Of a stretch of 35,338 nucleotides of DNA, positions 23,686 through 32,554 are shown piece by piece (position 1 is the first letter of the stretch; each line of letters starts with the position of its first letter). The DNA is from Acidimicrobiia bacterium (GTDB lineage Bacteria > Actinomycetota > Acidimicrobiia > Spongiisociales > SHLN01): the NCBI GenBank assembly GCA_051011455.1, contig JBPCTX010000288.1:1-35338 (forward strand), written 5' to 3'. The notes under the pieces were generated by a model. It did not search any database. It saw only the letters and a program-made list of their open reading frames with translations, and had not been told where the DNA came from. A program made the position numbers and the translations under genes.

Positions 23686-23754
23686 AATAGGCAATAGGCG
23701 GTAACGCTGTCGGCTGTCGGCTGTCGGCTGTCGGCTGTCGGCTGTCGGCCGCTG
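23686..23754. repeat. Heptanucleotide tandem arrays: (aataggc)x2, then (gctgtcg)x6 plus one degenerate unit
   Basis: Read directly: aataggc at 23686-23692 and 23693-23699. Six perfect gctgtcg units at 23706-23747, then gccgctg. Lies in the icd-mdh intergenic region. Confidence 0.95.
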
Positions 23755-23789
23755 GCTACCCTTCGATTGGCCGACTAGAGGGAGAGATA

Positions 23790-24728
23790 ATGAGCAAGGT
23801 GACGGTCGTCGGGGCCGGGAAATACGGGTCGACTACGGCCATGCGATTGGCCGAGGCGGACATTGTTGACGAGGTCGTCATGACCGACATCGTGGAGGGA
23901 CTCCCGCAGGGATTGGCTCTCGACATCAACCAGTCACGCCCGCTGCTTGGTTATCGGACGTTGATCAAAGGCTCTAACGACTATGCCGACACCGCCGGTA
24001 GCGATGTCGTGGTCATCACCGCCGGCCTGCCCCGCAAACCAGGAATGAGCCGGATGGACTTGCTCGAAGTCAACGCCAGGATCGTCAAAGATGTGACGAC
24101 TCAGATCGCCGAGCACTCACCGGAGGCGATCATCATCAACGTCACCAACCCCCTCGACCACATGACGACACTGGCCGCCGAGGTCTCCGGTTTTGCCACC
24201 GAACGGGTTATGGGCCAGGCCGGAATGCTGGACTCGGCCCGCTTCGCCCACTTCATCGCCGAGGTGACCGGCACCGACATCATGTCTGTGTCCGCCCTCA
24301 CCCTCGGCAGCCACGGCGAGACCATGGTGCCGGTTCCCTCCCAGACCAAGGTAGGAGACAAGCTGGTGACGGACATACTCGATGCCGCTGCCGTGGATGA
24401 CCTGGTAGATCGCACCCGCAAAGGGGGCGCCGAGGTCGTTGCCCTCCTCAAGACGGGCAGCGCCTACTTCGCTCCCTCGGCCGCAGCCGCCAACATGGTC
24501 GAGGCCGTTATCGGGGACACAGGTGAGATGATGCCGGTGTGCGCCTGGATGGGTGGGGAGTACGGCATTTCCGACGTCTACCTGGGCGTTCCGGCCCGAC
24601 TCGGCAAAGAAGGCATCAAGGAGATCGTCGAGCTCCCTCTCACCGACACTGAGGCCGCCGCCCTCGCCGATGCCGCCACCGCCGTCAAAGAAAAGGTCGA
24701 CGAACTCCACCAACTAGATCTGGACTGA
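23790..24728 (+). CDS. mdh: Malate dehydrogenase (LDH-like MDH family)
   Basis: 'KVTVVGAGKYGSTTA', 'VVVITAGLPRKPGMSRMDL', 'NPLD', 'GSHGETMVP'. SD GAGGGAGAG. Confidence 0.95.
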   Translation: MSKVTVVGAGKYGSTTAMRLAEADIVDEVVMTDIVEGLPQGLALDINQSRPLLGYRTLIKGSNDYADTAGSDVVVITAGLPRKPGMSRMDLLEVNARIVKDVTTQIAEHSPEAIIINVTNPLDHMTTLAAEVSGFATERVMGQAGMLDSARFAHFIAEVTGTDIMSVSALTLGSHGETMVPVPSQTKVGDKLVTDILDAAAVDDLVDRTRKGGAEVVALLKTGSAYFAPSAAAANMVEAVIGDTGEMMPVCAWMGGEYGISDVYLGVPARLGKEGIKEIVELPLTDTEAAALADAATAVKEKVDELHQLDLD

Positions 24729-24734
24729 TTGGTC

Positions 24735-24811
24735 CCACCCCTCCCGCTTGCGGGAGGGCGGCAACACTGCGTGTTGCTGAGGGGAGGGGTGGGCAACCCG
24801 CAGGGTTGCCA
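24735..24811 (+). terminator. Multi-hairpin structured element after the mdh stop, with mutually exclusive pairings
   Basis: H1 24740-24759 (8 bp, CTTG loop). H2 24762-24778 (7 bp). H3 24793-24811 (8 bp). In addition, 24735-24746 (cccacccctccc) is perfectly complementary to 24783-24794 (gggaggggtggg), which competes with H1 and H3. No U-tract. Confidence 0.4.
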
Positions 24812-24840
24812 GCGCGTTCCTGTGTTATTGATTGGTAGAG

Positions 24841-24952
24841 CAGTAGGCAGTAAGCAGTAAGCAAGAATGATTGCTGATTGCTGATTGCTTGCGGATTGCT
24901 GGTTGCTGGTAGCTGGTAGCTGGTAGCTACCGCCCACTACCCTCTACCTCAA
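24841..24952. repeat. Composite heptanucleotide array (about 16 heptads in one continuous phase)
   Basis: gcagtag gcagtaa gcagtaa gcaagaa tgattgc tgattgc tgattgc ttgcgga ttgctgg ttgctgg tagctgg tagctgg tagctac cgcccac taccctc tacctca. Lies in the mdh-SCP2 intergenic region. Confidence 0.9.
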
Positions 24953-24976
24953 ATCACCAAGAAGGAGACAGTTTCT

Positions 24977-30371: not shown

Positions 30372-30554
30372 ATGCGTGGACTCGGCTGGCCGGAGCTCAT
30401 CCTCATACTCGTGATTGTCGTGGTGCTCTTCGGGGCGACGCGGCTTCCTTTGATCGCCCGCAGCATCGGCTCCTCGGCCAAGGCCTTCCGCCGGGGACTG
30501 GCCGATCAAGCCGGTGACGCCGACGAAGATCAACCCGTCAACGGCGATGACTGA
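30372..30554 (+). CDS. tatA: Twin-arginine translocase subunit TatA/E
   Basis: 'GWPELILILVIVVVLFGATRLP' followed by an amphipathic helix. 60 aa. SD AAAGGAAG. Confidence 0.9.
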   Translation: MRGLGWPELILILVIVVVLFGATRLPLIARSIGSSAKAFRRGLADQAGDADEDQPVNGDD

Positions 30555-30606
30555 GTCGTCGACCGGCGGGGAACTCTTTTCCGCCTCCACACCGTTACTT
30601 GCCTAG

Positions 30607-31119
30607 ATGGTCTCGAACGAGGCCGTACCCACGTGGGAGCAGGTCGCCAGTGACTATGGGCGAACCATTTACAACTTTGCCTACAGGCTCACCGGTAACC
30701 GGGATGACGCCTCCGACCTGTCGCAGGAGGTACTGCTCAGGGTCCGGCGCGGTCTGGCCAACTACCAGCCGGGATCGTTCGAGGGCTGGCTGTGGCGAAT
30801 CACCCGCAATGCCTTCCTCGACGAGGTTCGCAAGAAACAGCGCCGCCCCACCACCGAGCTCCCCGACGAAGATCGCTCAGCTATCGCTACCACTCCGACC
30901 CCGGAAGAAGTGCTCTCCCAGACCCGTCTCAGCGACGATGTCCAACAAGCTCTTCTGGCTCTTCCCTACGAGTTTCGAGAAGCTGTCGTGATGTGTGACG
31001 TGGTCGGACTCAGCTATCAGGAGATCGCCGAAGCGGCTGAGGTCCCGGTCGGGACGGTAAGGAGCAGAATCCATCGCGGTCGATTGCTACTGCGAGATGC
31101 GTTGGAGGTGAGTGGTTGA
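30607..31119 (+). CDS. sigE: ECF sigma factor, SigE-like
   Basis: Region 2 'IYNFAYRLTGNRDDASDLSQEVLLRV', 'GSFEGWLWRITRNAFLD'. Region 4 'VVMCDVVGLSYQEIAEAAEVPVGTVRSRIHRGR'. An in-frame TAG lies directly before the ATG, and the SD is weak. Confidence 0.9.
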   Translation: MVSNEAVPTWEQVASDYGRTIYNFAYRLTGNRDDASDLSQEVLLRVRRGLANYQPGSFEGWLWRITRNAFLDEVRKKQRRPTTELPDEDRSAIATTPTPEEVLSQTRLSDDVQQALLALPYEFREAVVMCDVVGLSYQEIAEAAEVPVGTVRSRIHRGRLLLRDALEVSG

Positions 31120-31517
31120 TGCACCTGGGCGACTTGATTTCCGCCTACGTCGACTCCCAGCTCGATGCTTCGGAGCGGGCAGCAGCCGATGAGCACCTCG
31201 CCGGCTGCCAGCAGTGTCGCCGCGAGCTGGACGTTGTCACGTCGAGCCGGTACCGGCTGCGCCGGCTGCCGGTCCTAGAGCCCCCTCCCGAAGCCTTGCG
31301 TCCACCCGCCCCGGTGGTGCCACTTCGTCCCGCTCGTCGTCGCCTGCTGGTGGCGGCCGCAGCAATGTCGACGCTTGTGGTTGGTGTCGGCTTCTCGGTC
31401 AATGCCGAGAAGGCCGTCCCGCTCCCGTTGGACGCCGTCGTCGACCAGCACGTTGCCCGGGCGTCGGTTGATCCCGGTCTCAACGTGCTCCAGGTTCAAG
31501 CGGTGGTCAACCGGTGA
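31119..31517 (+). CDS. Membrane-spanning zf-HC2 anti-sigma factor (RseA-like)
   Basis: 'HLAGCQQC' (H-x3-C-x2-C), then a single TM 'LLVAAAAMSTLVVGVGF'. The ATG overlaps the sigma-factor TGA (TGATG). Confidence 0.8.
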   Translation: MHLGDLISAYVDSQLDASERAAADEHLAGCQQCRRELDVVTSSRYRLRRLPVLEPPPEALRPPAPVVPLRPARRRLLVAAAAMSTLVVGVGFSVNAEKAVPLPLDAVVDQHVARASVDPGLNVLQVQAVVNR

Positions 31518-32428
31518 TCTTCACGCTGACGCTGGCCGTTATGACGCTGCTCGGGACCATGCCGGCACCCGACCTGGTTGACGATCTGGATGGTGCTGCC
31601 GATGCCGAATTCGTCGGCCGCCAGCTGGTGGTGTGTTGGGGAGCAGATGGCGCCGTGGCGCACGTGACGGACGTTGAGCAATCCGGCGGCATGACGATGG
31701 TCACCGGACCGGATGGCTCGTTCGTCATCGGCGAGGGCAAGATGATCGAGCAATGGGCGGGTGGCATCCGCTACCTGGAGATGACGCCAAGCACCGACTG
31801 GCGGCTGTGGGACGGCTACTCGGTGCGAGAGGGTCTGGCCGGGGTGGCAGATCCGGCCGGATCGCGGGCGGTCGAAATTCGCCAGGATGGCGGGCTGCGG
31901 GCGCGGTTCGTGCTCGATGTGGCCACGGCCACCCCACTCACGACCGAGATCTACAACGGAAACGGGTCGCTGTACCGCTACTCGACCATGCTGGAGGTCC
32001 GACCGCGTAATGACGACGCCATGCTCGACATGGACGACATGCCCGAGCCGGACCACCGCGACCACGCGGAGGCCGAGGCGATTCCGCGGATTGCCGGGCA
32101 CTACTGGGCCGCCGACTCCTACTCGGCACCCGGCGGAGTTCAGGTCTTCTTCACCGATGGCCTGTTCCGTTTCTCCGTGTTCGAGGTGAATCGCAAGAGC
32201 GATGGCGGGGGTCTAGCGGACGCCCGTTCGGCTGAGATCGGTGGCCAGGGCGGATATCACCGTCTGTATACGCCAGGAGCCGTCAGCGTCTTCTGGCGCA
32301 CCGCCGACCAGGCCTACGTTCTAGTCGGCGACCTGCCCCCCGATCACATGGAGACCGTCCTGGCGGACTTGCCACCCCCGGGTCGCCCCAACGTCCTCAA
32401 ACGCGCCTGGCGCTGGGCATTTGGCTAA
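31514..32428 (+). CDS. Exported protein, possible MucB/RseB-like sigma-E regulatory component
   Basis: Hydrophobic N-terminus. 'AVEIRQDGGLRARFVLDVATATPLTTEIYNGNGSLYRY' and 'FFTDGLFRFSVFE' resemble RseB N- and C-domain patterns as recalled (weak). The GTG overlaps the anti-sigma TGA (GTGA). TAA stop. Confidence 0.55.
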   Translation: MIFTLTLAVMTLLGTMPAPDLVDDLDGAADAEFVGRQLVVCWGADGAVAHVTDVEQSGGMTMVTGPDGSFVIGEGKMIEQWAGGIRYLEMTPSTDWRLWDGYSVREGLAGVADPAGSRAVEIRQDGGLRARFVLDVATATPLTTEIYNGNGSLYRYSTMLEVRPRNDDAMLDMDDMPEPDHRDHAEAEAIPRIAGHYWAADSYSAPGGVQVFFTDGLFRFSVFEVNRKSDGGGLADARSAEIGGQGGYHRLYTPGAVSVFWRTADQAYVLVGDLPPDHMETVLADLPPPGRPNVLKRAWRWAFG

Positions 32429-32456
32429 TCACCAGTCGCCAGTCACCAGTCGCCAG
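32429..32456. repeat. Heptanucleotide array (tcaccag/tcgccag)x4
   Basis: Starts at the first nucleotide after the TAA stop of the RseB-like gene. Confidence 0.95.
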
Positions 32457-32506
32457 TCTTCCGTGCGGCTGCACCATTCGCCGGAGAGGATTACGGCTCT
32501 GGCTGG

Positions 32507-32554
32507 TAGCTGGTAGCTGGTAGCTGGTAGCTGGGCCTGGTAGCTGGTAGCTGG
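32507..32554. repeat. Heptanucleotide array (tagctgg)x4, a 6-nt interruption (gcctgg), then (tagctgg)x2
   Basis: Same unit as 24911-24924. Ends 3 nt from the peroxiredoxin stop codon (32558-32560, minus strand). Confidence 0.95.

Follow-up and report, generated by a model that had tools for sequence, protein, structure and literature searches.

Contiguous intergenic arrays of heptanucleotide units form a known class of bacterial repeats. Here we describe such arrays in contig JBPCTX010000288.1 (positions 1-35,338) of the Acidimicrobiia assembly GCA_051011455.1, referred to below in its full 35-kb length as the window, in which at least eight different heptamers are arrayed in four gaps next to the genes icd, mdh, SCP2, sdhB and ahpC. 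The arrays are specific to period 7, confined to one clade, intergenic and subject to rapid turnover; their units drift and are shared, arrays of one gap pair with each other in inverted orientation, and whole modules recur. The reading we favour, to which we give a probability of about one half, is that they are fast-evolving heptanucleotide microsatellites of the STRR and long simple sequence repeat (SSR) class, generated by slippage on hairpin arms, with an effect that is structural if there is one.

Long SSRs have units of 5-11 nt, and the most frequent unit length among them is seven in the majority of the repeat-rich genomes of one survey, whose ten richest include three Actinobacteria (Mrazek 2007, as summarised in PMC4679880). 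The proposed cause is slippage of the polymerase, and the repeats are scattered over the phylogeny (Mrazek, Guo and Shah 2007, as summarised in PMC4679880 and PMC4692102). The window resembles these genomes in the dominance of heptads and in the exclusion from coding sequence of units that are not a multiple of three, and its arrays fall into the long-SSR class as head-to-tail heptad copies that run longer than composition predicts. Unlike the system described here, the long SSRs of that survey are a statistical class, and the summaries of it report neither hairpin pairing nor module recurrence nor Acidimicrobiia.

The GGGAATC arrays of Xanthomonas are contiguous heptads in 2-18 copies in a high-GC host (Rehm et al. 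2015, PMC4692102). About 90% of them are intergenic and 7-11% intragenic, and they lie mostly in co-directional gaps, with 16% in convergent and 7-8% in divergent gaps (PMC4692102). Each genome has 70-75 inverted pairs capable of forming stem-loops, the arrays are mostly transcribed, and sister species keep the gene context of an array with varying length and sequence (PMC4692102). Nearly every one of these features, including the frequent inverted pairs within one gap, is present in the window and its clade. Unlike Xanthomonas, which belongs to a different phylum and uses essentially one G-rich unit capable of forming a G-quadruplex, the window has many units, none with a run of three G and none G-quadruplex-capable; only some relatives match Xanthomonas in having G3 units (CGGTGGG, GGGCTCT).

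Two further groups have one fixed unit per family. TAACTGA direct repeats are found in marine Beggiatoaceae, Cyanobacteria and Bacteroidetes (MacGregor 2015, PMC4679880), and Geobacter metallireducens carries the heptanucleotide elements GGACCGG and MTYCTGA (PMC2700814); both lie a few nucleotides upstream of start codons, suggesting translational control (PMC4679880, PMC2700814). The present arrays share with them contiguous intergenic heptads in many copies and an ACTG/CTGA core, as in the TCTGAxx units of the relative L012 (relatives are given by their L numbers throughout), but they use many units, tend to abut stop codons and show no strand bias.

The STRRs of cyanobacteria, which Mazel et al. 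are said to have described in 1990, reportedly have the units CCCCAGT, TTGGTCA and CAACAGT. The window's arrays are of the same general kind, as a first-pass annotation made from the sequence had proposed, in that several types of heptamer per genome are dispersed in non-coding DNA, are restricted to a lineage and have CAGT/ACTG and CCAG/CTGG cores. They differ in having no identical unit and an actinobacterial host, and descent of the two from a common ancestor is implausible. The near-matches to STRR units that had been listed are essentially what chance provides, a random heptamer lying within two mismatches of an STRR unit 42% of the time; within one mismatch are three of 11 units (p about 0.02), two of them from the same array, and there is no exact match in any rotation or on either strand. 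The statement that such arrays are known only as STRRs was also too narrow in view of the heptamers of Xanthomonas, Nostoc, Beggiatoaceae, Geobacter and many genomes rich in long SSRs; in Nostoc few inverted pairs have been published (PMC4692102), unlike here, where they are frequent. That the host is a high-GC actinobacterium and not a cyanobacterium is borne out by the relatives, by the NCBI name Acidimicrobiia and by the presence of WhiB; the GC content of the window is 0.60-0.66.

Three other kinds of repeat are more distant. MIRU units, which make up variable number of tandem repeats (VNTR) loci in Mycobacterium, measure 40-100 bp and often have short open reading frames (ORFs) overlapping the flanking stop and start codons. 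They too are intergenic actinobacterial tandem repeats, sitting between operon genes and varying in copy number between strains, but their unit length sets them apart from heptamers. Phase-variable contingency SSRs belong to surface or virulence genes, lying in the ORF or in the promoter spacer, where a change in unit number switches expression; the arrays here differ in that they lie outside ORFs, half of their clusters between convergent genes, and next to genes of the tricarboxylic acid (TCA) cycle and for a peroxiredoxin. In REPs each arm is one palindrome of about 20-35 nt; REPINs require a RAYT transposase, and growth of REPs by addition of units is not known. The arms in the window differ as tandem heptads of variable number and sequence, and no RAYT (Y1 transposase) gene was found in its 35 kb. 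What they have in common with REPs and REPINs (Bertels and Rainey 2011, PMC3116915) is that they are short extragenic hairpins with two inverted arms, occurring in either orientation, specific to the genome and dispersed between co-directional and convergent genes. A full-text literature search with the term "Acidimicrobiia" gave no description of such arrays in that class. The window's arrays thus belong to the known heptad class, and neither to the STRR sequence family nor to the REPINs.

Heptanucleotide arrays of the window

Tandem Repeats Finder (TRF) and a scan for perfect periodic runs, both applied to the whole window, recovered every period-7 array of the first-pass annotation where it had been placed, in the same four gaps:

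23624-23789, icd/mdh gap, with arrays (CAATAGG)2.1 and (GCTGTCG)6.3
24729-24976, mdh/SCP2 gap, with (AGCAGTA)3.6 and a drifting array of TGATTGC x3, GGATTGC, TGGTTGC and TGGTAGC x3
25364-25443, SCP2/sdhB gap, convergent, with (ATCAGCT)5.3 and (ATGACCG)3.7
32429-32557, ORF304/ahpC gap, convergent, with (TCACCAG TCGCCAG)x2 and (GCTGGTA)8.4

The individual arrays, and one possible relic, are as follows:

23685-23699, (CAATAGG)2.1 in the icd/mdh gap, its register continuing into the next array (TRF, perfect-run scan)
23706-23749, (GCTGTCG)6.3, perfect, with a degenerate tail to 23757 (TRF, perfect-run scan)
24839-24863, (AGCAGTA / GCAGTAR)3.6, left hairpin arm with the next array as partner (TRF, fold)
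24868-24889, (TGATTGC)3, start of the continuous drifting array 24868-24928
24896-24910, (TTGCTGG)2, within the drifting array
24905-24928, (GCTGGTA)3.4, within the drifting array
25363-25399, (ATCAGCT)5.3, perfect, its first base being the last base of the SCP2 stop codon (TRF, perfect-run scan)
25398-25423, (ATGACCG)3.7, perfect, in register with (ATCAGCT)5.3 and ending 20 nt before the sdhB stop codon
32429-32458, (TCACCAG TCGCCAG)2.1, directly after the ORF304 stop codon, left hairpin arm of the gap
32502-32559, (GCTGGTA)8.4 with one interruption, running into the ahpC stop codon (minus strand), right hairpin arm of the gap
33106-33130, degenerate GCTGTCG-like relic in the divergent ahpC/sugar-transferase gap (repeat-family search, 80% identity)

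Perfect period-7 runs of at least 14 nt number 11 in the window; 100 simulated first-order Markov sequences had 2.7 of them on average and never more than 7. Six runs in the window reach at least 21 nt, a length that no run attained in any simulation. Among perfect arrays of at least three copies, six have period 7 and only one has any other period from 4 to 12. Lag-7 autocorrelation is 0.47-0.73 in the four array gaps and at most 0.41 in the 13 other gaps of at least 60 nt; the highest TRF score of a window array is 88. Arrays take up about 40% of the icd/mdh gap, 36% of the mdh/SCP2 gap, 76% of the SCP2/sdhB gap and 68% of the ORF304/ahpC gap, so that the earlier description of the gaps as consisting largely of arrays fits the two convergent ones best and the other two less well. 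That arrays occur nowhere else in the window holds broadly, the exceptions being a 2.1-copy run of GGGGTGC in coding sequence (5058-5072), which is at the level of chance, and the relic at 33106-33130, itself uncertain because the lag-7 autocorrelation of its gap is not elevated.

Drift of the unit can be followed along a single array. From 24868 to 24928 the order is (TGATTGC)3, a 4-nt slip, GGATTGC, TGGTTGC and (TGGTAGC)3, the last being the TAGCTGG unit, i.e. the heptamer changes stepwise from TGATTGC through GGATTGC and TGGTTGC to TGGTAGC.

Clade restriction and turnover

Relatives were sampled around mdh, SCP2 and ORF304. The scan with the mdh protein, taking one genome per species, yielded 80 loci, the nearest of which all come from Acidimicrobiia-type metagenome-assembled genomes (MAGs). 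Clades were delimited on an mdh tree and period-7 arrays counted at a TRF score of at least 40, which gave 55 arrays in 660 kb for the window's clade, on 18 of 53 loci, and none in 640 kb (41 loci) of other Actinomycetota. For periods 5, 8, 10, 11 and 13 the window's clade yielded 0-4 arrays. The expansion thus concerns period 7 and this clade specifically. Within the clade its distribution is patchy; L009 and L012 are array-rich members, and L010 is an array-free one. Arrays are kept as a trait in relatives of the window, contrary to the absence there that the first-pass annotation had named as a refutation.

The sister genome L088 has mdh 95% and SCP2 91% identical to those of the window and the same gene order over 12 kb, and in these syntenic 12 kb there is no period-7 array at a TRF score of at least 40. 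Its mdh/SCP2 gap measures 57 nt, against 248 nt in the window, and at the site of the window's (ATCAGCT)5.3 it has a proto-repeat, TTAGCTGTCAGC, followed by a conventional double hairpin. In the icd/mdh gap similarity to L088 resumes where the array stops: (GCTGTCG)6.3 ends about 32 nt 5' of the mdh start codon, and the segment that follows directly is conserved in L088 and probably holds the mdh promoter and ribosome-binding site (RBS).

Other relatives show intermediate states. L114 and L115, which come from two different samples and have SCP2 92% identical to that of the window, are identical in sequence and carry only TAGCTGG TAGCTGA at the spot orthologous to 24868-24928, against a run of about 13 heptad units in the window. 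Between species, the orthologous site thus has 0, 2 or about 13 units, and the two samples of one relative agree. L114 and L115 also have (ACTGGCG)3 in the SCP2/sdhB gap, which is the unit of the window's array at 32429-32458 and occurs in L004 as well. The ORF304/ahpC gap is occupied by different arrays in different genomes:

Window, (TCRCCAG)4...(GCTGGTA)8
L117, (GGCAATA)3.7...(TGCTGCY)2
L119, (GGCAATA)2.5...(TRCTGCT)5
L118, degenerate trace only

These differences between relatives indicate that the arrays are young, individually dispensable and growing in place. No contig of the same species was present in the collections searched, the nearest SCP2 relatives being 92% identical.

Shared units and recurrent modules

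The proposal that the arrays form a dispersed family stands, since units recur both between gaps and between genomes. When units with at most one mismatch in any rotation or on either strand are counted as shared, 16.4% of within-genome pairs of arrays from different gaps share a unit, compared with 3.5% of pairs between genomes (odds ratio 5.3). The TAGCTGG unit, reported earlier from two loci 7.6 kb apart, was seen at both in a repeat-family search, and a network of single mismatches connects TTACTGC, TTGCTGC, TTGCTGG, TTGCTGA, TAGCTGG and TAGCTGA within the window. Five window units are identical in some other genome (GCTGTCG, CCAGTCG, ATCAGCT, GCTGGTA and AGCAGTA). AGCAGTA is found in L081 and L086, and GCTGTCG in L009, upstream of mdh and inverted downstream of it; CAATAGG, as GGCAATA, is arrayed in L081, L117 and L119. 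The vocabulary is restricted: 55% of units contain CAG/CTG, whereas among background intergenic heptamers the share is 25%, and GTAC, AGTA and ACTG show a 4-6 fold excess. Related cores are found elsewhere, with CAGT in STRR1 and STRR3, ACTG in the TAACTGA of Beggiatoa and CTGA in the MTYCTGA of Geobacter.

Larger modules also recur. In L012 three modules share the conserved centre ...CAGATYT-GAGACTCTTC-GATGTCT..., with (GATGTCT)n, and the module (GGCAATA)n...(TKCTGCT)n lies in different gaps of L081, L117 and L119 and is reverse-complemented in the window.

As a side observation, the arrays flanking mdh in L009, (CGGCTGT)n upstream and (GACAGCC)n downstream, lie about 1 kb apart at 9932-9960 and 10939-10973, each inside a local hairpin.

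Inverted pairing and hairpin arms

Arrays that share a gap tend to be complementary. With G-U pairs allowed, nine of 17 same-gap pairs match at 6/7 or more, compared with 21% of pairs drawn from different genomes (p=0.004); when only Watson-Crick pairs count, eight of 17 match at 5/7 or more, compared with 12% (p=0.0004). An inverted two-unit partner, defined by at least 11/14 bases within 150 nt, accompanies 25 of 67 arrays (Wilcoxon p=1e-8 against shuffled-unit probes). The pairings of the window are (GCAGTAR)n with (TGATTGC)n, AGCAGTA being complementary at 6/7 to TGATTGC; (TCRCCAG)n with (GCTGGTA)n; and (ATCAGCT)n with (ATGACCG)n, which pair at 6/7 on the minus strand. ATCAGCT is in turn the reverse complement of TAGCTGA. 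One such structure, at L012:14262-14435, folds into a single stem of about 75 bp with nested array pairs, in which six bases of each heptad are paired and one is unpaired (fold z = -7.9 and -7.6 on the two strands).

In L009 an ordinary hairpin follows mdh, and the array there is its left arm in expanded form. The window's SCP2/sdhB arrays occupy the site of the L088 double hairpin. In the window's two convergent gaps no sequence other than the arrays forms a hairpin, so that any function there in termination or protection of 3' ends would fall to them. A scan for consensus intrinsic terminators over 22-34 kb found no site in the array gaps and a total count equal to the shuffled expectation, and the array hairpins lack the T-run that would give a U-tract. 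Actinobacteria often use terminators without a U-tract, however, so hairpins without a T-run may still act in this way. Canonical promoters in the array gaps did not exceed expectation, and Rfam gave no match in the window.

Gap context and strand symmetry

Context statistics were taken from the array-bearing sources with crude coding calls based on GC content at third codon positions. These calls class about 88% of the DNA as coding, yet only 12% of the bases in arrays lie there. Arrays are present in 36% of co-directional, 25% of convergent and 13% of divergent gaps (Fisher p=0.04, divergent against the rest). Many clusters start 0-20 nt past a stop codon and leave about 30-60 nt free ahead of the next start codon, a trend to the stop side that can be put down to the space that the next gene needs for itself. 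A general preference for the upstream stop over the downstream start was not significant (20 of 33 arrays nearer the stop, p=0.3).

No bias towards the sense strand was seen. Structure specific to the sense-strand RNA through G-U pairs was considered and rejected, since the plus-strand folds of the window are more stable but, over 26 co-directional array gaps in which sense and antisense RNA folds were compared, the sense fold is better in only half. In sense orientation G and C stand at 52:48 and CTG and CAG at 11:14. A role as backup stop codons in three frames was likewise discarded, with stop triplets in 16 units in sense and 12 in antisense. This symmetry in fold energy, base composition, CTG/CAG and stop triplets fits a phenomenon at the level of DNA or of hairpins, and sequence-specific binding to RNA is disfavoured by it.

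Origin of the arrays

We infer a history in which 7-nt units would expand in place by slipped-strand events within the dispensable part of the spacer, i.e. behind stop codons and upstream of the approximately 30-60 nt required by the next gene. Expansion would take place preferentially on the arms of hairpin-forming sequences, and an array on one arm facing a near-complementary array on the other would yield long imperfect stem-loops with six paired bases and one unpaired. Units would drift by point mutation followed by renewed amplification, and entire hairpin modules would be copied to other gaps in either orientation. Any effect would be structural and not sequence-specific, through intergenic stem-loops of variable length; in the two convergent gaps of the window these would be the only candidate terminator or 3'-end hairpins, with each array individually dispensable.

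Several observations weigh against this explanation. Plain slippage does not account for the restriction to period 7, to this clade and to a limited vocabulary of units. Array gaps are no more stable per nucleotide than array-free gaps, the SCP2/sdhB gap of the window has no significant fold z-score, several arrays are solitary, and (GCTGTCG)6 pairs with itself only through G-U wobbles and on one strand. Self-complementary units that would drive hairpin-promoted slippage were looked for and are no commoner than among shuffled units. Arrays that are not independent are pooled in many of the statistics, L012 and the window supplying most of the same-gap pairs; relatives were sampled only near mdh, SCP2 and ORF304, and instability within species is deduced from comparison between species.

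Some of these points would suit purely neutral junk microsatellites, arising where a lineage-specific quirk of replication or repair favours 7-nt slippage and having neither a structural nor a regulatory role, with neighbouring arrays complementary only through template switching within quasi-palindromes. We regard this as unlikely. In its favour, individual arrays can be missing, as in L088, array gaps have no stability in excess of others, neither strand is preferred, only part of the clade's loci carry arrays, and the polymerase-slippage proposal of Mrazek, as summarised in the later literature, is a precedent. It fits less well with arrays that are the sole hairpin formers of two convergent gaps, one of them at the site of the L088 double hairpin, with composite modules that have conserved loops at several loci, or with the depletion of arrays from divergent gaps. 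Recurrent modules would instead be expected of miniature mobile hairpins of REPIN or MITE type, with heptad arrays as arms, spread by an enzyme of their own, such as a RAYT-like Y1 transposase, that only array-bearing genomes would possess. The three L012 modules with a common conserved centre, the GGCAATA/TKCTGCT module in both orientations in non-orthologous gaps of related genomes, and the greater sharing of units within than between genomes all speak for such elements, and patchiness among close relatives would follow from gain and loss of the mobilising gene. We nevertheless consider them improbable, given that the 35-kb window has no transposase or RAYT-like gene, that no target-site duplications or fixed element ends were seen, and that arm lengths and units vary continuously, with orthologous sites showing growth in place from none through 2 to about 13 units.

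Readings in which the arrays act on their neighbours fare worse still. Sites for a protein that reads 7-nt registers and regulates the flanking genes, be it on RNA (Csp, S1, a CsrA-like protein or a HutP-like reader of UAG-N4 such as was proposed for TAACTGA) or on DNA (a nucleoid protein), would make sense of the restricted vocabulary, whose enriched cores recur in STRR1/STRR3 (CAGT), TAACTGA (ACTG) and MTYCTGA (CTGA), of the location next to highly expressed TCA-cycle and ahpC genes, and of a Nostoc preprint that reports altered reporter expression on deletion of heptamer repeats. Such a protein would however have to cope with many units per genome (at least eight in the window alone), in no preferred orientation to the transcribed strand and at variable distances from start codons, and the arrays are missing from the same gaps of L088, where mdh is 95% identical; we think specific binding very improbable. 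Slightly worse are the prospects of contingency loci, in which copy number would tune, heritably and reversibly, the promoter geometry or 5' untranslated region length of mdh and SCP2. Two clusters do lie upstream of these genes, (GCTGTCG)6 ending just before the probable mdh promoter/RBS segment, and copy number differs between relatives, but half of the window's clusters lie between convergent genes where there is no promoter, arrays are scarcest in divergent gaps, which hold promoters only, the neighbouring genes serve housekeeping and not surface or virulence functions, and two independent samples of one relative have identical copy numbers (n=2, short arrays). An artefact of short-read assembly can be set aside with near certainty. 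The window is a MAG contig, but each of its arrays is at most 60 nt long and so shorter than a sequencing read, and one array-bearing assembly, L022 with a 506-kb contig, looks from its name and size like a long-read assembly. Similar arrays are present in at least 20 independent assemblies from NCBI, JGI, ENA and Logan, with two identical Logan samples, and are therefore not the product of any one assembly.

Heptad arrays have been known from cyanobacteria since 1990 and as the dominant class of long SSRs since 2007; what the window adds is an independent example from another phylum, in a high-GC, uncultured host. The hairpin-arm architecture and the recurrence of whole modules suggest that the arrays are not simple independent microsatellites. 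A bolder claim, that an active lineage-specific system creates and spreads hairpin elements with heptad arms (six paired, one unpaired) in this uncultured Acidimicrobiia clade, seems to us doubtful; if it were true, gain and loss between sisters at 95% mdh identity would point to a trans-acting factor, for instance a polymerase or repair variant or an enzyme mobilising small elements. With arrays confined to the clade and yet patchy in it, the contrast between the window and the array-free L088 is suited to finding a causal gene or mutational signature, and should the same principle underlie the STRR, Xanthomonas, Beggiatoa and Geobacter heptads, sister genomes with and without arrays would make the question of why heptamers are used a testable one. 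The arrays are likely hotspots of length polymorphism that could serve as strain markers in metagenomes, and likely break points for short-read assemblies.

Neighbouring genes and other features

Pfam matches in the window identify icd, mdh, SCP2, sdhB, sdhA, an AhpC/TSA peroxiredoxin, an ECF sigma factor, a zf-HC2 anti-sigma factor and WhiB. ORF304 (31514-32428, 304 aa) has no Pfam match, and its earlier label as RseB-like is not upheld; its homologues are 48 database proteins, mostly from Acidimicrobiia, with the NCBI entry ACR2OI_10045 a 100% match. It belongs to an operon at 30607-32428 that encodes the ECF sigma factor, the zf-HC2 anti-sigma factor and this 304-aa protein without a Pfam domain. 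Between a 306-aa ORF and the ECF sigma gene lies a TatA-like ORF of 60 aa (MRGLGWPELILILVIVVVLFGA..., 30372-30554, plus strand), at whose position the relatives L118 and L119 have a gene with a Pfam TatA_B_E match; the longer ORF on the opposite strand (30306-30590) is probably spurious.

Two hairpin features near the arrays are not made of heptads:

23624-23668, plus strand, double hairpin of 45 nt directly after the icd stop codon, GCCGGAC-TTC-GTCCGGC and GGAGTTAC-TTC-GTAACTCC (sequence, fold)
24732-24812, plus strand, GC-rich nested hairpins after the mdh stop codon (sequence, fold)

The 45-nt double hairpin is found reverse-complemented in the SCP2/sdhB gap of L088 (6407-6451), where the window has heptad arrays, and may be a relocated terminator-like element. 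It was also considered as a dispersed repeat, and this was rejected since the window and L088 each have one copy of it.

Elsewhere in the window, a cluster for cyclic-nucleotide signalling (5510-6709, 6706-9366, 12095-13711 and 14803-16482) encodes three proteins with adenylate/guanylate-cyclase domains, of which one also has a STAND NTPase and TPR repeats and another has PAS domains in tandem; the cluster further encodes an MFS transporter with a fused domain that binds cyclic nucleotide monophosphates. The sucD gene (19752-20771, plus strand), with CoA_binding and Ligase_CoA domains, overlaps the end of sucC. An apparent gap of 356 nt at 19900-20255, left by the crude gene call, is coding sequence of sucD, which explains its period-3 and period-9 autocorrelation.

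Some relatives carry heptads with G3 or C3 runs, namely (CGGTGGG)4, (GGGCTCT)8.6 and (CCCTCGC)n, at L001 803-832, L081 1762-1790, L093 4316-4375 and L021 7885-7913, 11381-11436 and 11950-11973; by analogy with the GGGAATC arrays of Xanthomonas, these could form G-quadruplexes on one strand.

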